The notes: generated from the sequence alone by a model not told the origin. A stretch of 64,000 bases of DNA from Euryarchaeota archaeon UBA130 (GCA_002505775.1 DAVY01000006.1:9318-73317); one strand, 5' to 3'; counted from the stretch's first letter, positions 17,126-26,031 are shown. Translations and numbers: made by a program.

Positions 17126-18067
17126 GTGGAAGATGCAGTAAGGCAACTACTAAGCGCGAGAGGAGTCCGACTCGATCCTTCTCCCGGTATTGTGTCTTCT
17201 CCAGGCTTTTCTCTGTTGGGAGTAGCCGAAAGAGTACCCGAATTTGGTGAAAGGGGGGGCAATCCAGTAAATGTCTGGCACTTGGAATCCAATTTATTAC
17301 CAGTAAGTATGGCCGAATTTGAAAGATGGGTCGTCGATGCTCCTCGAGGTAGGCATTGGATACTGAGCGAAAGGAAATTACCGGAAGAGTACACTTCCAT
17401 ATTGCCCCCTGGTCTGGAGATTGTAGTATGGGGGCCGAATGATATGTCAGTTTGGCTTGGAGAGGCTATTCTATCAGGTGAGCTAAAAGTCACTGCCCAA
17501 ATAACTAATCTAGATTCCACACACACAGCCAATACCGATAGAGAGGGCCAAAATCATGACATGGCGGGCTCAATTAAACCGATTGTCGAAATCGAATCCT
17601 GGCTCACACAGAAAGGCTACGAAGGGGCATTGACGTATCCAGTTCTCCTAAATTGCATCATATGGAAAGTAGAGGGTACTATAGTCTCCCCAGCCGGTGA
17701 GTCTGAAGATAAAAAATGGATGATTCTTGAAGACCCCTGGGCATCAACAATATCTATATTTGATGGTTTTGATAATTCATTCCACTCGCCAAGTTTGAGA
17801 GTATTAGATCCCCCCCCATCAAGGTGGAAAGGAACTGAACAGATAAAATCCCTTCTGCCATCAATATTAGATTCCAGAAGACAGGGTAAGACGGAAGATG
17901 CAGATGGTTCGGTTAGAAGTATAATGCTAGAATGGTGGAGATTGGAAGCTAGCTCTGCAATAATTTTACCAAGAAATATCGGAATACCAGCATGGGTGGT
18001 CAAACTTGAGGGTAGAGAGGATAAAATCCTTCACGGACTTAATGGCAGGACGTACCCAATCGTCTAA
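17126..18067 (+). CDS. Hypothetical protein (no recognisable domain)
   Basis: 313 aa ORF occupying the position where NusA/rps12/rps7 normally follow rpl30e. Coding-like composition. Confidence 0.4.
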   Translation: MEDAVRQLLSARGVRLDPSPGIVSSPGFSLLGVAERVPEFGERGGNPVNVWHLESNLLPVSMAEFERWVVDAPRGRHWILSERKLPEEYTSILPPGLEIVVWGPNDMSVWLGEAILSGELKVTAQITNLDSTHTANTDREGQNHDMAGSIKPIVEIESWLTQKGYEGALTYPVLLNCIIWKVEGTIVSPAGESEDKKWMILEDPWASTISIFDGFDNSFHSPSLRVLDPPPSRWKGTEQIKSLLPSILDSRRQGKTEDADGSVRSIMLEWWRLEASSAIILPRNIGIPAWVVKLEGREDKILHGLNGRTYPIV

Positions 18068-18936
18068 TTTCTCTGTAACGACATCAGCTCTTCAGTTGAT
18101 AACGTGTCCCCAGACATCAACTTAGACATAAGATCGGAAACCTCAGTCTTATCCTCTGATTCTCCTACCTTCGTTCTTGATTCCATAGCCTTAACAATAT
18201 CCTGAATTGAGTGGATGCACCTTAGTGAAACTATGTACAAGCTATGTATTGAATCTGCTTCCTTTTTCGACTTAGTCAGTCCGGAGTGAGCGGAATTAGC
18301 TAACTCTCTAAGCCTATCCACTTCCTCTGAGAGCTCTACCATCAGATCATGGGCCTCTTGAGCCTCGACAACAGCTTTCTCAACCCTATTGTGAGCTTCT
18401 TCTTGTGTCCTTTCAGCATTACGGACTGCGGATTTTAGATCACTTAACTTACCGCCGTCTTTGTTGAAGGCCTTTGCCTCCTTCAACTCCTGACTAAGCC
18501 TTTTCATCTCCCTGAAGAAACCCTTCTCGCTAGCCCCAGTGAATCCACCTCTCTCGTATTTTCTTTCCAAAGCATCCATTTTTGCTCTAATTTTTGATGG
18601 AGGAGGACCAGATCTGCGCGTTGTGCTTTCACCATTTTCCTCAAGCCTCGAAAGTATCTCTCTCAACTCAGTCCTAATTTGCTTCAGCTCGTCGGATTTC
18701 TCTGCTCTATCAATTTTCAGCTCCTTGACCTTTGTATTCGCAACATCCCGAATGTCTTTCTGAGACCTGACCTCTGAAATCAGCTCCTTGACCTGACGAT
18801 TAACTTCATTCCGGGTATCTAGATATGCCCTGACCTTCGCATTCAGCTCATCTCTAAGCTCGCGCCTCTCTTCAAGACCAGACTCTAGAGCCTCCTTGAC
18901 GGGAGAAAATACTTTGTTGATCTCTTCAAGCTCCAA
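18064..18936 (-). CDS. Coiled-coil protein, paralog 1 of 4 (CC1)
   Basis: 290 aa, almost entirely heptad-like charged helices (ELRDELNAKVRAYLDTRNEV…). Shares segment pattern with 18988..19956, 19953..20768 and 25030..26031 (central GxxTxxExxxxRxxKxL, followed by an AHxxxxKAxxEAxxxxxxLxEEIxxLR block). Confidence 0.5.
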   Translation of the reverse strand: MELEEINKVFSPVKEALESGLEERRELRDELNAKVRAYLDTRNEVNRQVKELISEVRSQKDIRDVANTKVKELKIDRAEKSDELKQIRTELREILSRLEENGESTTRRSGPPPSKIRAKMDALERKYERGGFTGASEKGFFREMKRLSQELKEAKAFNKDGGKLSDLKSAVRNAERTQEEAHNRVEKAVVEAQEAHDLMVELSEEVDRLRELANSAHSGLTKSKKEADSIHSLYIVSLRCIHSIQDIVKAMESRTKVGESEDKTEVSDLMSKLMSGDTLSTEELMSLQRN

Positions 18937-18987
18937 CTTCCTTCCTCCCTAATTACGAATCTGAACTGACATTTAAGCACATATATC

Positions 18988-19956
18988 TCAATCTTCCCTG
19001 TTTGTTGCAAGGTTTCCCTTTCTCGGCCCTCTCCGTGATACTCCAATCTTCCTCTTCTTTTTGGGTGTATCTGTTTTTCTCTCTATGGATTTAGCTCCAG
19101 AACTAGATTTACTGCCAGCTAGATCTGAAAGATTTCCAGAGCCCAATAAAGCGTCTAATTCAAGGGTGCTCAGAGATCCGCCTGTCTTCGCTTTCGCCTT
19201 AATTTCTGAGAATCTAACCTTTCTATTCCTTCCACCGGTCACCCTTTGGTATGACCTCACTCGAGAAAGCTCCTTCCGTAGAGATTTCCTTTCATTATCT
19301 ATGGACTCTATCCTTTTGTCGATTTTTGAAATCCTTTTACTGATTTTCCTGACTTCGCCCCTATTCGCTTTGCCCTCAACCCCCGCTTCTGAGTCTGCAC
19401 GTTCCTCCAGGCCTTTCCTTTCCTTTTTCCCCTCATCCAGTTTCGAAGTTATTTCCCTCATTTCCTTAGCTTTTACGACATATTCTGAATGTGCATTTTC
19501 CGACTCGGACTTTTTCGTTATCGAAGCCTGAATTTCAAAGAATCTTCTGAATGCTTCCAGTTCCCTCGGGAGCGTCGGGACTGCCGTTAGATCATTGTCT
19601 ATTGTAGTCAACCTTCTATACGTCTCGGAAAGCCACTCCTTCAGGACCTCCATAGGAGGAGGAATTAGTTTGTTAACCTCGTCCCTTCTCTTCCTATGTG
19701 TATCCGCAGATTTTCTGGTCTCGTGAAATTTTCTGAGCAGGTCCCTTCTTTCTGAGTCCGCCTCTTCCATTCCCCCCACAATATTTCTGAGAACCCTGAC
19801 CCTGTTAACTAAGTCCATCCTCTCGGCCCTAAGGTCCCTCCTCTCGCCTTCAAGTGACCCGAGCCCACGCTCAAGCTCGCTTCTGAGATCATGGACCTGA
19901 TTTCCATCAAGATTTTCTAAATCCTGAAAAGAGTTCGAATTAATCCCTTCACTCAT
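18988..19956 (-). CDS. Coiled-coil protein with basic C-terminal tail, paralog 2 of 4 (CC2)
   Basis: 322 aa. Coiled-coil core, then Gly/Ser linker and basic tail …TPKKKRKIGVSRRGPRKG. Overlaps CC3 stop (ATGA). Confidence 0.5.
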   Translation of the reverse strand: MSEGINSNSFQDLENLDGNQVHDLRSELERGLGSLEGERRDLRAERMDLVNRVRVLRNIVGGMEEADSERRDLLRKFHETRKSADTHRKRRDEVNKLIPPPMEVLKEWLSETYRRLTTIDNDLTAVPTLPRELEAFRRFFEIQASITKKSESENAHSEYVVKAKEMREITSKLDEGKKERKGLEERADSEAGVEGKANRGEVRKISKRISKIDKRIESIDNERKSLRKELSRVRSYQRVTGGRNRKVRFSEIKAKAKTGGSLSTLELDALLGSGNLSDLAGSKSSSGAKSIERKTDTPKKKRKIGVSRRGPRKGNLATNRED

Positions 19957-20768
19957 TCTTCTTCCTCCTTACCCTTCTTTCCCTTCCTCATAGCGAAGGA
20001 AGATGCCCCTCCAGACAAAACTCTGTTCATATCAATAAGCAGATCATCAAATCCATTTACTTCATCTCCAAATCCTGAAGAAACCTTGACTTCCCAGAGA
20101 GCTATCGCATCCGAGGATTGTGAATAAAGCTCTTTGGCTCTATCTAGTTGCCTTCTGGTATCCCTAATTTCTTCTTTTAAGGCTACCATTTTCTCATAAA
20201 GTGGCTGTGCCTTTTCTACGGCCTTCATCATTCTGGAGTGCGCTGTCTCTGAAGCTTTGAAATTAGAAACCATTATTTTTCTAGAATCGAGATATTTAGA
20301 CATTTCTGGATTGGATGCCCGCCTCTCCTTGAGCCATTTCTCGTTCTGCTCAATTAGCTTCCTCCTCTTGGAAATTAGCCTACCCTCTTCTCTGTGGTCC
20401 AGAGCAGATGTCTCTATTGTGGACTCTATGTTCTCCAGCTCTTCAAGAAGCTTCATCTTCTTCCACTCGGGATCCAAATTAACCATTCCTCCAGTTTTTG
20501 ATAGTGTGTCTACAGACTGTCTAACCTCAACCAGCTTTTCCCGAGCAATTTTCTGAGCAGTATTTCTTTTCTGCTTATTATTGGCAACAACATCATTTGC
20601 AGTGGCATGAGCTTCAACCGCCCTCTTAACTTTAGGAGCAAGGGCCTCTTCTTCAGCCTCCAGATTCCTAATTACGTTGGGCAACTGCTCCTCCAAGGCT
20701 TTCCATCGGGCCAGAAGGCCTTCAGCAAGCATCTCGGGTTTTACCTCCATCAACTGTTGGACGTCCAT
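19953..20768 (-). CDS. Coiled-coil protein, paralog 3 of 4 (CC3), ending …RKGKKGKEEEE
   Basis: Start set at MDVQQLMEVKPEM (20768), where the coiled-coil begins as in the paralogs. The longer ORF to 20897 would overlap the divergent gene and the promoter palindrome. Confidence 0.5.
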   Translation of the reverse strand: MDVQQLMEVKPEMLAEGLLARWKALEEQLPNVIRNLEAEEEALAPKVKRAVEAHATANDVVANNKQKRNTAQKIAREKLVEVRQSVDTLSKTGGMVNLDPEWKKMKLLEELENIESTIETSALDHREEGRLISKRRKLIEQNEKWLKERRASNPEMSKYLDSRKIMVSNFKASETAHSRMMKAVEKAQPLYEKMVALKEEIRDTRRQLDRAKELYSQSSDAIALWEVKVSSGFGDEVNGFDDLLIDMNRVLSGGASSFAMRKGKKGKEEEE

Positions 20769-20785
20769 TGCAATCCCGCCCACCC

Positions 20786-20816
20786 GTGACCGTCGGTTAA
20801 AGGTCACTATGTGACC
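20786..20816. promoter_or_regulatory. Palindromic operator candidate GTGACC-N10-GGTCAC-TAT-GTGACC in the divergent promoter region
   Basis: Read directly: GTGACC at 20786–20791, GGTCACTATGTGACC at 20802–20816 (near-perfect 6-3-6 inverted repeat). Lies ~55 bp upstream of the GTG start at 20872 of the operon that encodes a DtxR-family regulator. Confidence 0.3.
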
Positions 20817-20871
20817 TTGGGAAGGGTTTGTTTGATACGCCTCCACATCTCGGAAGTTTTGAGGGACGGGT

Positions 20872-22770
20872 GTGAAGCATACTGCTAACTTTGCCATCGC
20901 TGTAGTTTTCCTCCTCCTTTTTACCGGTTCCGTTAGGGCAGAGGTGGAAGAGTCGCCTTCATTGACAATACAAGACTCTAATTTTTGGATTATAGAATCA
21001 ATCGATCAGACAACATCATCCCCGAACGGTAATTCTACTGTATCTGACGGGGACTACGTTAGAATTTCAATGGAGGTCTACAATAACGTAGACCTTTCAA
21101 TCAATGGCTCATGGGAGCTAAAGGTGCTTTCAAACGGTATCTGGCATACTTCGATGTTTCAAAATGAATCTTGGCTCCCTTATGAGACTAAAAGTCCAGA
21201 GATAACCATCGGCCCAATGGTCGAGGGTACAATATCCATGATGTTCGAAGTTAAGACGTTTGACCCCTCGCTAAACATATCCGTCACCAAGGACATAAGG
21301 GTGGCCCCAAATCCAATAATTTTCAGCTCAGCCGGGGACTCAGTAATTGCCATTACAGGTGAGCCCGCGTATGTCGGCGACAAACTGACTGGCTCGATTT
21401 TAGTCAAGAACCAGGGAGAGGTCGAGGGAACAGTCTTCCTACGGTTAACTCATGATGAGTCCTCGACCTCATACTACGGGCAAAATGTCACGATTAGTCC
21501 CGGTTCCAGTAGGGAGGTATCTGTTAATTTTGAATTTCCTACTCCCGGGATGAAAGAATTCAGATGGGATGTCATTAGTAGCATTGGAGGGGTCTCATTG
21601 GAACTAAATGGGTCACATAATCTCATTATCATGCCACAACAACAAGTACATTCTGGGATTAATTCTCTCGCTTGGACCATATCAAGTGGCATAGAGTTGG
21701 AATATTGGGTATCTCTTTCCGATGGACCTTCAAGGGAGATAGAGATCTCCATCGGGGAATATCAAGCGGGATTATTCACCGAACTTCAAAGTTTTCCGAT
21801 GAAATTAGACCAGGGCGTCAGAAATCTCGATTTTAATATCCCCAATCCTGATAGTAATCTCGATAGAATTAGAATAACAATATCCCCTCTGGACTGGACA
21901 TCCGGACAGATCGCAGATTTGTTCGTTGAACTCACAAGACCTCAACCAATTATCCAGATCACATCCTGTACGCAGACACCGGAAATTGTCGACATCCATG
22001 AAACAGTTTCCTTGGAATGTATCTTTACGAATATTGGCAATTCAGACTCGCTACCCGGAGATATAACAATAATGAGGGTATCTGATGGAATGTTATACGA
22101 TGAGGCGGGTAAGAAATCAATTTCAATATCTACAGGAGAATCCAAGGTGATATCAACCTCCATCCAAGAATGGCAAAACGAAGGTTCAACCCCTCTTCAA
22201 GTGAGGTATTCTTCTGGGGCTACATTGACAACTGGCAACATAACAATCCAGGCTAATCAGGTACCATCAGAAGGTTTCAAACTGCCCTTTGACACAACTG
22301 CCGCTTTACTGGGGGCTGTATCTGGCGTTGTAATTATGATGGTCGCACTAGTTCTGTGGAGGGTGGCCACTGAAAGGACACCGTCAACAGTCACTGAGAG
22401 TAAGCCTTCTATCTCCAGAATAGAAAAAAGGAGGGAGTCCGATAAAATTGAGGTTTCTTGTCCGACATGTAGCCAGAGGCTGAGTATACCCGGTGGGCAC
22501 GTTGGAAGAGTGAGGTGTCCAGCATGTACCAATAGCTTCGAAGTTGGCGTGAAAAACAATCCCGCCGTTGAAGGGAGTAGTATCGAAATTGAAGAACAGG
22601 TAGAAAAGGAGAATGTAACTGAAGAGAAATTTTTGAATTCCAGCTCGGATTCTGATATTCTTTCATGCCCCTCATGTGAACAGCTACTCAAGGTCCCACT
22701 TGAGAAGAGACCGATCATGTCCAGGTGCCCTGCATGTAGGACAGAATTCAAGGCGTTAAGAGGCGATTAG
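20872..22770 (+). CDS. Surface protein: signal peptide + CARDB-like β-domains + single TM + cytoplasmic tandem MJ0042-type zinc ribbons
   Basis: 632 aa, GTG start. Signal MKHTANFAIAVVFLLLFTGSVRA; two CARDB-like segments (…ILVKNQGEVEGTVFLRL…VTISPGSSREVSVNFEF…; …CIFTNIGNSDSLPGDITIM…); TM AALLGAVSGVVIMMVALVLW; then CPTCSQRLSIPGGHVGRVRCPAC and CPSCEQLLKVPLEKRPIMSRCPAC. Confidence 0.6.
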   Translation: MKHTANFAIAVVFLLLFTGSVRAEVEESPSLTIQDSNFWIIESIDQTTSSPNGNSTVSDGDYVRISMEVYNNVDLSINGSWELKVLSNGIWHTSMFQNESWLPYETKSPEITIGPMVEGTISMMFEVKTFDPSLNISVTKDIRVAPNPIIFSSAGDSVIAITGEPAYVGDKLTGSILVKNQGEVEGTVFLRLTHDESSTSYYGQNVTISPGSSREVSVNFEFPTPGMKEFRWDVISSIGGVSLELNGSHNLIIMPQQQVHSGINSLAWTISSGIELEYWVSLSDGPSREIEISIGEYQAGLFTELQSFPMKLDQGVRNLDFNIPNPDSNLDRIRITISPLDWTSGQIADLFVELTRPQPIIQITSCTQTPEIVDIHETVSLECIFTNIGNSDSLPGDITIMRVSDGMLYDEAGKKSISISTGESKVISTSIQEWQNEGSTPLQVRYSSGATLTTGNITIQANQVPSEGFKLPFDTTAALLGAVSGVVIMMVALVLWRVATERTPSTVTESKPSISRIEKRRESDKIEVSCPTCSQRLSIPGGHVGRVRCPACTNSFEVGVKNNPAVEGSSIEIEEQVEKENVTEEKFLNSSSDSDILSCPSCEQLLKVPLEKRPIMSRCPACRTEFKALRGD

Positions 22771-23421
22771 ATGGTTGATCTCAGCGAGTTTGAAGAGATG
22801 TATTTGAAGAGAATTTTTGAGATCTATGACTCAGAGCCGAGTACGATAGTAAAGACATCTCAGCTAGCTAAAGTAATGCGAGTTAGCAACGCATCCACCA
22901 CAGAGATGATACAGAGGCTATCAGATAGGGAGCTTCTAACCTACATACCATACAAGGGTTGTAGGCTAACTCCAGAGGGATTCAAGATTGCTGCACGAAT
23001 AAAAAGGAGAGAGGGGCTATTACAGATTCTTCTGTCCGAGGTGGTTGGATTTGAAGGCGATGTGGATGAGGCGGCCTGCAAAATGGAGCATGACATGTCA
23101 TCCGAACTAGAGGAGGCTATTGACAGGATGCTCGGATACCCTGAGAGGGCACCCGATGGAACAAAAGTCCCGGTTATAGAAAGGAATCTAGATCTATCTC
23201 CCAAGAAATACCTTCTTCCTCTCTCATACTTACCAGTCGGATCCACCTCCAAAATTGAGATTATCGCACTCGATAATACTGATCAGAAAACACTTGAGGG
23301 AATGGGCCTGGAGGTAGGAACTATCATCACTAAAGAAAAAGAAGGCGTAAGATTTCAAGAAAAGGTGTTGAAACTTAGCGAGTCTTTGATGAAGAAGATA
23401 TTGACTAGGATGGAGGGATAA
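22771..23421 (+). CDS. DtxR/MntR-family metal-dependent transcriptional repressor with C-terminal FeoA/SH3-like domain
   Basis: 216 aa. N-terminal wHTH (TSQLAKVMRVSNASTTEMIQRLSDRELL), dimerisation/metal-site region with conserved Glu/His/Asp, and C-terminal FeoA-like β-domain. Start abuts the upstream stop. Confidence 0.8.
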   Translation: MVDLSEFEEMYLKRIFEIYDSEPSTIVKTSQLAKVMRVSNASTTEMIQRLSDRELLTYIPYKGCRLTPEGFKIAARIKRREGLLQILLSEVVGFEGDVDEAACKMEHDMSSELEEAIDRMLGYPERAPDGTKVPVIERNLDLSPKKYLLPLSYLPVGSTSKIEIIALDNTDQKTLEGMGLEVGTIITKEKEGVRFQEKVLKLSESLMKKILTRMEG

Positions 23422-23422
23422 T

Positions 23423-24991
23423 ATGGACGAGTCAGAAGGAGTTGACCAGCATCTTGTTGATCTCGCTGACGACCTCTCGGGAATCGCCCCCCCCGCTCCC
23501 TCTGTCCCTGTCTCTAATTTATCCAACTCCGATAGTAGTTGGATGGATGATACTCTGAGGTCAAAGGAATCAACATTGCTTAGGATTGACAGGCTTCTTG
23601 TTAGCGGAGGCGCCAGGCTCGTGTTGTTACTCCCCCTCTTGGCCGTGATGCTATTGGGAGCTGCTCAATCCTATGGCTCGAATGATACAGAGTGGTGGAA
23701 CGAGACATTGAGGGATGCAGCGGGTGGCTTTTCCTTGATTAGGGCAACATACGCTGTCGCCCTCCTCATATTAATTGCTGATATCTTCCTACTGTCCATT
23801 TTACTGAGGATGATGACATACACGAGGACGATTTTCCATCATGAGGCCGATTCCTTAACTTCTGCCGGACTAACATTTAGGAGCTCACATGGCTATGCAG
23901 AAATGAGGGCGACAATTGATGGCTCAATCAGACAGATTACTGCAACATCATCCTTGATTGTAATTTCCTCGATACTGCTGGCTCTTTCTCTGTGGTTCCC
24001 TTCTGGAAATGAAGAAGTGAGTCCTGTCTTGTTGGCCCTTTCTACAGGATGCCTTCTAGCGGGTCACGGTGTGCAATTAATTTCAGTTCGTTCCAGATAC
24101 AATGCATCCGAGCCGTGGGGAATGCTTGAGGCATTCTCGCCGCCCATCCACCCTGCATTACTAAGCCGGCCATTTAACGACGTCATTAAGGCCCATATCG
24201 ATCCATTATTGGGTATTAGGATTACCGAGTACCTGAAGACAGTCAGGTCTGAACTTAGAGAGGGATATACTATGTCGGAATTGCAAGAGTCATTATTACT
24301 GCTTCTCCACCTAAGAAGGTCTTCACTGATATCGGAGTCAGAGTTTAAGACGAAATTAGCCAGTATGGTCGAGCCGACTGCTATTGATGGCCTTTTCAGA
24401 CATCCAGAAGTAGGTGAAGAGACTTGGGACAGGCTTTTGCAACATGCTAGAAGCCAGTGTAAGCCATTCTTTAGATTACACGATAGAATGAGAATGAGAC
24501 GAGGAATTAGTAGCTCAGATGGAGGTTTCTGGTTCGATGTGGATATGGAGAACCTAGTTGTTGGCCAAGCAAATCTATTCGCCTTCATCTTAAATTCGGG
24601 CAACGAATCGAAAGATTTAGTATTAAAAATTCAGACTCCTGATTTCAAACCCAATGAATGTGTCTATCGTTTGCGTTCTGAACCTATAAATATGGATTCA
24701 GATCCATTAAACCCTCCCCTCCTCTCCACAATGATTCAAGAAATGACAAACAGTACAAGTATTGTCTGGCAGAGTCTTCTTCCCTCCATTAAGGGAGAGG
24801 CCACTGTAACTGTTAGACTCGAGGACGACTCAGGAAATTTATTATCTGGGAGGGTACTAAACGTGCAAGTCGGAAGTGATTTGATTACGAGGACTAGGAG
24901 GGCCGTTGGAGCGATGTTTATGGCAGGGGCGCTTATTGCAATCCTATCTCCCTTACTTCCATTCGCAGGGTCGGTCCTCGGACTTCTTTGA
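23423..24991 (+). CDS. Polytopic membrane protein (hypothetical), third gene of the operon
   Basis: 522 aa. 4–5 predicted TM helices in the N-terminal half, large soluble central region, C-terminal TM (AMFMAGALIAILSPLLPFAG). Translationally coupled to the DtxR gene. Confidence 0.5.
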   Translation: MDESEGVDQHLVDLADDLSGIAPPAPSVPVSNLSNSDSSWMDDTLRSKESTLLRIDRLLVSGGARLVLLLPLLAVMLLGAAQSYGSNDTEWWNETLRDAAGGFSLIRATYAVALLILIADIFLLSILLRMMTYTRTIFHHEADSLTSAGLTFRSSHGYAEMRATIDGSIRQITATSSLIVISSILLALSLWFPSGNEEVSPVLLALSTGCLLAGHGVQLISVRSRYNASEPWGMLEAFSPPIHPALLSRPFNDVIKAHIDPLLGIRITEYLKTVRSELREGYTMSELQESLLLLLHLRRSSLISESEFKTKLASMVEPTAIDGLFRHPEVGEETWDRLLQHARSQCKPFFRLHDRMRMRRGISSSDGGFWFDVDMENLVVGQANLFAFILNSGNESKDLVLKIQTPDFKPNECVYRLRSEPINMDSDPLNPPLLSTMIQEMTNSTSIVWQSLLPSIKGEATVTVRLEDDSGNLLSGRVLNVQVGSDLITRTRRAVGAMFMAGALIAILSPLLPFAGSVLGLL

Positions 24992-25029
24992 TGAGTTCCA
25001 TTCAATAACAGCTCCCTACTCCCAAATCT

Positions 25030-26031
25030 GTGAATGATGACGAACCAAGTCCTGATGACGACCTGAAAACCAGGCTTCATGCAATGGAGGCAAGGCTCAG
25101 AAGAATGAGGGATCAGAGGACTTCTCACAATGAAGATGCTAGGAGAGCTGCTGACTCAAGGAACTCGGTTCAAGAACAGTCGAAGGAGATTAGAGCCTCT
25201 ATTGAGGAGAAATTAAACGAGCAAAAAGAAGTTAGGGCTAGAGCAAAGACACATCAGATGCAGAGGGACGCTATTCAATCTAGAATTAGAGAGATTATCG
25301 ATAGCAAGAAAGGTAGGAGGTCCGAAGCCAGTAAAGCGAAATCAGATGTAGTCGAACTTTCTGAAGTAATGGCGGAGATATCCAATATAGAAAATAGGCT
25401 GATGACTGATGGAACTTTAACTCTCAAAGCAGAGAATAGGCTACTTAGAAAACTCAAGATACTTGCCTCCAAAAGGGATGTTCTTCTTCCCAAAGCAACC
25501 GAATTTGAAGCCATCAATATAGACCTAGGAGATTTGGAGAGTACAATTCAAACCCTCAAAGCAGAAGCTGACTCACAACACCAAGAGATGATTAGAGCTC
25601 ATGAAGAGGCAGATATAATCTGGGAAGAAGTGAAACCAATGTTGGAAGAGAGAGACTTCCTAAGGTCTGAAGGCGACAGATTACACGCCATCTTTGTCGA
25701 GTCAAAGGAGCTCGCTAATTCTGTACATGCGGAAATCGAGGTACTTCTCAAAGAGGTCAATGAAGCCAGAGATGAAATGAAGGCTAGAAGGGAGGAAAGA
25801 GCTAGGGTGATTAGGGAGCATAACGAGTCCGTCAGAAACGCTCTCAAAACCCCAGATAAGGACGAGGTTCTTGCAGAATCTCTTACGGACAAACTTCTTT
25901 CTGAGGGTACACTGACTCTGGGAGGGTCGATGTCAGGGGACCCCCAAGCTTCGCCAAGCGCAATTTCATCATCAGCCGGTAAAAGAAGAAAACCGAGAAA
26001 GGTAGGGTCATTCAGGAAGCCAAGGAAGTAA
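25030..26031 (+). CDS. Coiled-coil protein with basic C-terminal tail, paralog 4 of 4 (CC4)
   Basis: 333 aa. Coiled-coil core with the same segment pattern as CC1–3. Tail …SSAGKRRKPRKVGSFRKPRK. Confidence 0.5.
   Translation: MNDDEPSPDDDLKTRLHAMEARLRRMRDQRTSHNEDARRAADSRNSVQEQSKEIRASIEEKLNEQKEVRARAKTHQMQRDAIQSRIREIIDSKKGRRSEASKAKSDVVELSEVMAEISNIENRLMTDGTLTLKAENRLLRKLKILASKRDVLLPKATEFEAINIDLGDLESTIQTLKAEADSQHQEMIRAHEEADIIWEEVKPMLEERDFLRSEGDRLHAIFVESKELANSVHAEIEVLLKEVNEARDEMKARREERARVIREHNESVRNALKTPDKDEVLAESLTDKLLSEGTLTLGGSMSGDPQASPSAISSSAGKRRKPRKVGSFRKPRK

Follow-up and report, generated by a model that had tools for sequence, protein, structure and literature searches.

Closest described systems

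The coiled-coil proteins considered here are most readily compared with DUF7121 (PF23435), which corresponds to COG1340 and carries the JGI label 'coiled-coil DUF342 family protein'. No function has been assigned to DUF7121, and consequently membership in the family does not explain a mechanism. Other DUF7121 proteins have independently gained H1-like KKP repeats, SAP and KH domains, and NYN RNase domains. Also among the closest systems are HP0958, CT398, and MSMEG_4306 (COG1579), in which an antiparallel coiled-coil hairpin is combined with a terminal zinc ribbon. Among metal-dependent regulators, DtxR and IdeR have operators of 19 bp, and several members of the DtxR family lack the ancillary metal site. 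In many Euryarchaeota, the NusA-S12-S7 genes come after rpl30e.

The DNA analyzed here (the window, 64,000 nucleotides, positions counted from its first letter) is from a Poseidoniales (Marine Group II) archaeon, UBA130; Marine Group II archaea are abundant in the sea. In the original prediction, four paralogous coiled-coil genes (CC1 to CC4) were said to bracket an operon for a zinc-ribbon-tailed surface protein, a DtxR-family regulator, and a polytopic membrane protein (MEM), all forming an accessory block after rpl30e. All eight predicted ORFs are present, with the start of CC3 revised, and the block does follow rpl30e, with one further conserved ORF (ORFX) in between. The genes are:

17126..18067, plus strand: ORFX, a conserved 313-aa protein between rpl30e and CC1
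18064..18936, minus strand: CC1, DUF7121/COG1340 coiled-coil hairpin, 290 aa
18988..19956, minus strand: CC2, highly diverged DUF7121-like coiled coil, 322 aa, with an Arg/Lys/Gly-rich tail …KKKRKIGVSRRGPRKGNLATNRED
19953..20768, minus strand: CC3, DUF7121 paralog, 271 aa from the revised Met44 start; the listed ORF extends to 20897
20872..22770, plus strand: surface protein, single-pass, 632 aa
22771..23421, plus strand: DtxR-family metal-dependent regulator, 216 aa
23423..24991, plus strand: MEM, a 522-aa membrane protein
25030..26031, plus strand: CC4, DUF7121 paralog, 333 aa, with a basic tail …GKRRKPRKVGSFRKPRK (elsewhere …RRLGTTRGKR)

The plus-strand genes are tightly coupled, as had been proposed: the stop of the CARDB-like gene at 22770 is followed by the DtxR start at 22771, the DtxR stop at 23421 by the MEM start at 23423, and CC4 begins 38 nt after MEM. 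On the minus strand, the CC3 stop overlaps the CC2 start by 4 nt. CC3 orthologs all align from residue 44 (Met44, window position 20768) rather than from 20897; thus, CC3 most likely starts at 20768. This start leaves 20769–20871 as the divergent intergenic region and removes any overlap between CC3 and the surface-protein gene.

A core gene cluster of the Poseidoniales

Among loci from 80 Poseidoniales species, every one that is long enough shows the same gene order between RNA polymerase and S3Ae, and the position of the cluster is unchanged in all Poseidoniales species sampled and in sister lineages. As a core gene cluster, the region has been inherited vertically in the Poseidoniales and their nearest relatives. 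ORFX, which gave no match in Pfam, NCBIfam, PADLOC, or PHROG, is a constant neighbor of the cluster, present in all loci including four of five distant ones (none was detected in L098). It should be noted that the whole 20-kb region is syntenic, including the unrelated housekeeping genes for PdxS, ferredoxin, S3Ae, and RNA polymerase, and consequently some of the linkage might reflect an inherited arrangement and not function.

Conservation of the arrangement in related genomes, a check proposed with the original prediction, holds in the 80 species and extends to five distant loci (L095 to L099; GC content 34–68%, RpoA2 55–65% identical in the four whose fetched stretch includes its gene). A core is kept in these loci: CC3-CC2 faces the surface/zinc-ribbon gene, and CC4 and CC1 belong to it as well. 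These loci carry inserted genes (GNAT, KaiC-like ATPase, PurP, and VIT1, the last an iron-transporter gene in the L099 neighborhood), the DtxR gene has been lost in L097 and L098, and the MEM gene has been lost in L095 and L097. CC4 still comes after the surface gene in those loci whose fetched stretch reaches it (L099 ends before), and in L095 and L097, its immediate upstream neighbor is the surface-protein gene or DtxR. The tail type of each CC paralog is also retained, with R-rich CC2 tails present in L095 to L099. The persistence of the core while DtxR and MEM come and go is evidence in favor of CC2–4 and the zinc-ribbon-tailed surface protein being functionally linked, a part of the original prediction that has thereby gained support.

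The coiled-coil proteins

The resemblance to the 'uncharacterised archaeal coiled-coil protein' family suggested in the original prediction was correct: the family is COG1340, that is, Pfam DUF7121. CC1 scores 47 bits against PF23435 (gathering cutoff 29). It has 716 homologs, and all among the matches listed carry PF23435; 844 representative clusters were also obtained. CC4 reaches 22 bits, below the cutoff of 29, and the Pfam search gave no PF23435 match for the CC2 and CC3 proteins of the window; the CC3 and CC4 orthologs in loci L001 and L003 carry precomputed PF23435. With hhalign and a broad 62-sequence DUF7121 family alignment as reference, CC4 matches the family profile at 99.4% (E 2e-21, 268 columns), CC3 at 98.1% (E 1e-13), and CC2 at 90.8% (E 1e-6), the last over 222 collinear columns that include the proline loop and the C-terminal motif. 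By BLASTP, CC1 and CC4 are 27% identical over 300 aa (E 1e-9; shuffled maxima about 20 bits). CC2 matches the CC1 and CC4 orthologue profiles in its C-terminal modules only, and its tail aligns with that of CC4 (E 4e-5). By these alignments, paralogy is judged to be beyond chance for CC1, CC3, and CC4. CC2, whose body matches only the broader family profile, is probably a highly diverged fourth paralog, so that the earlier claim of four paralogs with a shared pattern holds for three of them and is probable for the fourth.

CC1 is the ortholog of the single-copy gene of other Thermoplasmatota and the ancestral housekeeping copy; CC2, CC3, and CC4 are lineage-specific paralogs. In other Thermoplasmata, the canonical DUF7121 genes are solitary and have unrelated housekeeping genes as neighbors, and the domain fusions of the family point to RNA biology, not membranes; both observations run counter to the explanation favored below. 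In the AF2 model of CC1 (pLDDT 88.2), helices span residues 3–100 and 135–257, and the model superposes on antiparallel coiled-coil fragments. CC1 is therefore predicted to be a long antiparallel helical hairpin that is not specifically ESCRT-III-like or SMC-like. Searches of Pfam, NCBIfam, PDB sequences, and the literature returned no characterized function for the CC proteins and placed none of them in a well-characterized family, in keeping with the original prediction.

The tails quoted in that prediction (basic in CC2 and CC4, EEE-ended in CC3, not basic in CC1) are all present, and their type is constant across orthologs. Measured as the net charge of the last 30 residues in 75–82 orthologs per paralog, the tail is +7 to +12 for CC2 (80 orthologs), +4 to +12 for CC4 (75 orthologs), and -5 to -1 for CC1; CC3 ends in EEE in 67 of 75 orthologs, and this end is preceded by a basic patch. 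Tail type is thus fixed per paralog, with CC2 and CC4 having Arg/Lys/Gly-rich tails and CC3 a basic patch plus EEE. The acidic C-terminus of CC1 contains the family motif DLMSKLMSGDTLSTEELMSLQRN in 77 of 82 orthologs. In its general form (…F.R.K.GEKLSTEDLM.LQ…; MSGDTLSTEELMSLQ in CC1), this motif is also found in distant family members. CC2 has a degenerate copy (KTGGSLSTLELDAL), CC4 has only …SEGTLTLGG left and is counted as lacking the motif, and CC3, which has …SGGASSF at the expected place, lacks it as well.

The surface protein and MEM

The surface protein is organized as follows:

aa 1–23: signal peptide (sequence read)
aa 24–470: ectodomain, Ig-like/CARDB-like, fast-evolving
aa 471–501, nt 22282–22374: TM segment (hydropathy)
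aa 527–556, nt 22450–22539: zinc ribbon 1, CxxC…CxxC (C530/533 and C549/552)
aa 596–628, nt 22657–22755: zinc ribbon 2, CxxC…CxxC (C599/602 and C619/622)

The signal peptide, the single TM segment, and both CxxC…CxxC pairs are directly visible in the sequence, and these parts of the earlier description stand; the family names 'CARDB-like' and 'MJ0042 zinc ribbon' fall below Pfam thresholds. For PF07705 and related Ig-like families, the only hits (Cep192_D3; HYDIN/VesB-like Ig) have E values of about 1e-4 and about 22 bits versus cutoffs of 25–27, the zinc ribbon scores 17.6 bits against PF13717/PF13719 (cutoff 30.3), and the precomputed annotations of orthologs read 'CARDB (faint)' and 'Zn_ribbon_4 (faint)'. 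Both Cys quartets are conserved in orthologs. Identity to distant orthologs is 26% in the ectodomain versus 62% in zinc ribbon 1 and 70% in zinc ribbon 2 (65% across 43 aa for zinc ribbon 2 in L099), which argues that selection acts on the cytoplasmic side of the protein.

MEM is the polytopic membrane protein that had been predicted. Hydropathy places four N-terminal TM segments at 57–85, 99–134, 171–196, and 202–220 and a C-terminal one at 493–522, and by the positive-inside rule, the domain of about 270 aa with helical and Ig-like beta-sandwich parts is probably cytoplasmic. The AF2 model is poor overall (pLDDT 62); its beta-sandwich at 369–483 matches Ig-like domains. Strongly conserved in sequence, MEM gave no Pfam or NCBIfam match, and none of its 304 homologs has a Pfam domain. 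The 120 homologs listed are all at least 48% identical, and the few named ones among them are from Marine Group II or Thalassarchaeum archaea; MEM thus appears to be restricted to this lineage.

The regulator, a candidate operator, and promoter-like boxes

The DtxR-family regulator scores 53.7 bits for the PF01325 HTH domain and 65.1 bits for the PF02742 metal-binding/dimerization domain (cutoffs 26 and 27) and falls far under every NCBIfam equivalog cutoff; its C-terminus may hold a FeoA/SH3-like domain (FeoA E 0.004, below cutoff). In an alignment to 1g3y, M10, C103, E106, and H107 correspond to the primary metal site of DtxR (M10, C102, E105, and H106) and are invariant in 66 orthologs, and the ancillary site (H79, E83, and H98) is replaced by R79, L83, and D99. 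The noncoding elements of the cluster are:

18970..18977, minus strand: TATA-like box CTTAAATG / CTTATATG, then a GGAGG Shine-Dalgarno-like sequence; CC1 starts about 35 nt downstream of the box
20797–20801, read on the minus strand: TATA-like TTAAA, fused to the palindrome; the CC3 ATG lies about 28 nt downstream
20800–20818, no strand: 19-bp perfect palindrome AAGGTCAC-TAT-GTGACCTT, a candidate DtxR operator between two divergent core promoters
20797..20818, no strand: the combined TTAAA and palindrome element (sequence read)
20824..20838, plus strand: conserved box GGGTTTGTTTGATAC, consensus GGGGTTTSMTTSATAC; the surface-protein gene starts about 30 nt downstream
24996..25008, plus strand: conserved box TTCCATTCAATAA, immediately behind the MEM stop; CC4 starts about 25 nt downstream

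The palindrome element is kept in intergenic alignments, although identity of the flanking proteins is no more than about 50%. In 63 loci, the exact core GGTCACTAYGTGACC is present as a single copy, each time at this intergenic position. Within the 64-kb window, the palindrome has one occurrence and no second operator copy, against a chance expectation of 0.24 matches with three or fewer mismatches. The recognition helix …EMIQ[RK]L is retained in each of the 52 aligned loci that have the exact palindrome, and the two lineages that have lost the palindrome carry an altered DtxR recognition helix. This covariation, which amounts to two independent events only, suggests that the palindrome is a likely operator; L095 and L096, two distant loci that bear DtxR, lack the 19-bp palindrome, and both the small number of events and these two loci count against the favored explanation. 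With the primary DtxR site intact and a conserved palindrome between divergent promoters that covaries with the recognition helix, the metal-dependent control of the original prediction is plausible.

The box at 20824..20838, which has no Rfam match, is conserved across Poseidoniales intergenic regions, including clades without the palindrome, and is probably the core promoter of the plus-strand operon. The boxes upstream of CC1 and CC4 were identified in aligned upstream regions (16 diverse loci for the CC1 box). The former is probably CC1's own promoter, and the latter could serve as the promoter of a leaderless CC4 transcript. The apparent presence of separate promoters for CC1 and for CC4 is another observation that counts against the explanation given below.

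What might the cluster do?

CC2–4 are always encoded around the gene for a surface protein with a conserved double zinc-ribbon tail. Our best guess, a tentative one to which we give not quite even chances, is that a coiled-coil assembly, gated by metal and with tails that bind a polyanion, lies near the membrane. In this model, CC2–CC4 would form the assembly and dock on the zinc-ribbon tail and, where MEM is present, on its large cytoplasmic domain as well. The basic tails would contact a polyanion, more likely nucleic acid, with acidic lipid as the alternative; the tail charges and the fusions of DUF7121 to H1-like KKP, SAP, KH, and NYN RNase count in favor of such binding. In the Poseidoniales proper, the operon-encoded DtxR-type sensor would bind the palindrome between the back-to-back core promoters, and both operons, CC3-CC2 and surface-protein/DtxR/MEM, would thereby respond to Fe/Mn. 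The earlier view of four paralogs bracketing one operon as a single unit did not hold, since CC1 is ancestral, CC1 and CC4 have promoter-like boxes of their own, and DtxR and MEM are optional. Overall, the original prediction is partly supported: its family stands, the arrangement is conserved, and the link between the CC and surface proteins has gained support, but its accessory block and single unit do not hold.

A quite different explanation starts from the setting of the cluster, between the RNAP/L30e genes and those for S3Ae and 'RNA_binding'. Here, the four DUF7121 proteins would be cytoplasmic, RNA-associated, housekeeping rod-like adaptors whose tails bind RNA or DNA, and the surface/DtxR/MEM operon would be unrelated, merely lying among them in a slowly rearranging region beside the RNA polymerase operon. 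DUF7121-like coils fused or adjacent to NYN RNase, KH, and SAP, or fused to H1-like basic repeats, would fit such a role, as would the single-copy DUF7121 genes elsewhere beside MBF1-like, Sua5, MetAP, Rpr2, and TFIIS genes, the synteny of the entire region, and the promoter-like boxes of CC1 and CC4. However, in distant relatives the region has gained inserted genes and lost DtxR or MEM, yet each time CC3-CC2 facing the zinc-ribbon gene, with CC4 after it, has been kept. Furthermore, CC3 and the surface-protein gene have in common a control region of about 100 bp with one conserved palindrome, and the most conserved part of the surface protein is cytoplasmic and hence needs a cytoplasmic partner. 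Simple retention of gene order seems rather unlikely.

We consider it improbable that DtxR controls a metal-acquisition or metal-sensing system made up of the Ig-like surface protein and MEM, with the CC genes as co-regulated passengers or structural accessories. The intact Fe/Mn site, the probable operator between the promoters, and the nearby VIT1 gene of L099 would agree with this, but the other genes persist where DtxR (L097/L098) or MEM (L095/L097) is missing, MEM and the surface protein are unlike any known transporter or metal-binding family, and the window holds a single operator copy.

That the CC proteins are ESCRT-III/PspA-like membrane-remodeling polymers or SMC-like chromosome organizers is already disfavored and very improbable: they are long helical hairpins with weak NCBIfam, PADLOC, and PHROG hits to SMC, Rad50, JetC, and tape-measure proteins, but these hits span coiled-coil segments only (E 1e-2 to 1e-5), far below family cutoffs, and the CC proteins have neither an ATPase head or hinge nor a Snf7 or PspA match in Pfam. 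Finally, an accessory or mobile island inserted after rpl30e, suggested by the displacement of NusA-S12-S7 (a scan of eight downstream ORFs, part of those present up to 34.9 kb, found none of the three), is refuted by a position and a content that do not vary across the 80 species loci or the sister lineages, by unremarkable composition with GC and skew like the surroundings, by cluster proteins that are 50–60% identical across the order like those of neighboring housekeeping genes, and by PADLOC and PHROG searches of the block that returned no integrase, defense, or phage signatures.

Comparison with known systems

Unlike the arms of SMC and Rad50, the CC proteins (271–333 aa, almost entirely helix) have no ATPase head, hinge, or zinc hook, and their matches to SMC families, limited to coiled-coil segments, reach 13–17 bits versus NCBIfam cutoffs of 567–729. 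As candidates for ESCRT-III or PspA (Vipp1), they lack the Snf7/PspA_IM30 signature and the ESCRT-III fold. The surface-protein tail resembles MJ0042-type zinc ribbons (Zn_ribbon_4/5) in its two CPxC-N15–16-CPxC units with typical spacing and flanking residues; here, the ribbons score below the Pfam cutoff and lie at the C-terminus of a single-pass protein with a signal peptide.

Like DtxR/IdeR/MntR (C. diphtheriae DtxR, 1g3y; ScaR, 3hrs), the regulator has both domains above Pfam thresholds and the primary site, and a candidate 19-bp palindromic operator adjoins its own operon. It differs from DtxR in its ancillary residues (H79 to R, E83 to L, H98 to D), and the half-site AAGGTCAC of the candidate operator duplex, AAGGTCACTAYGTGACCTT, differs from the DtxR/IdeR consensus, TTAGGTTAG. 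In addition, the genes that the regulator would control are not recognizable metal transporters.

CC1 shares with DUF7121 the length (about 290 aa in the family), the hairpin architecture, and the G-[DE]-x-L-S-T-E-[DE]-L motif at the C-terminus. The other three paralogs carry charged tails instead of the family C-terminal motif region. Furthermore, three non-Poseidoniales Thermoplasmatota loci each show one stand-alone copy within the fetched stretch, whereas here, four clustered paralogs are linked to the gene for a zinc-ribbon-tailed surface protein.

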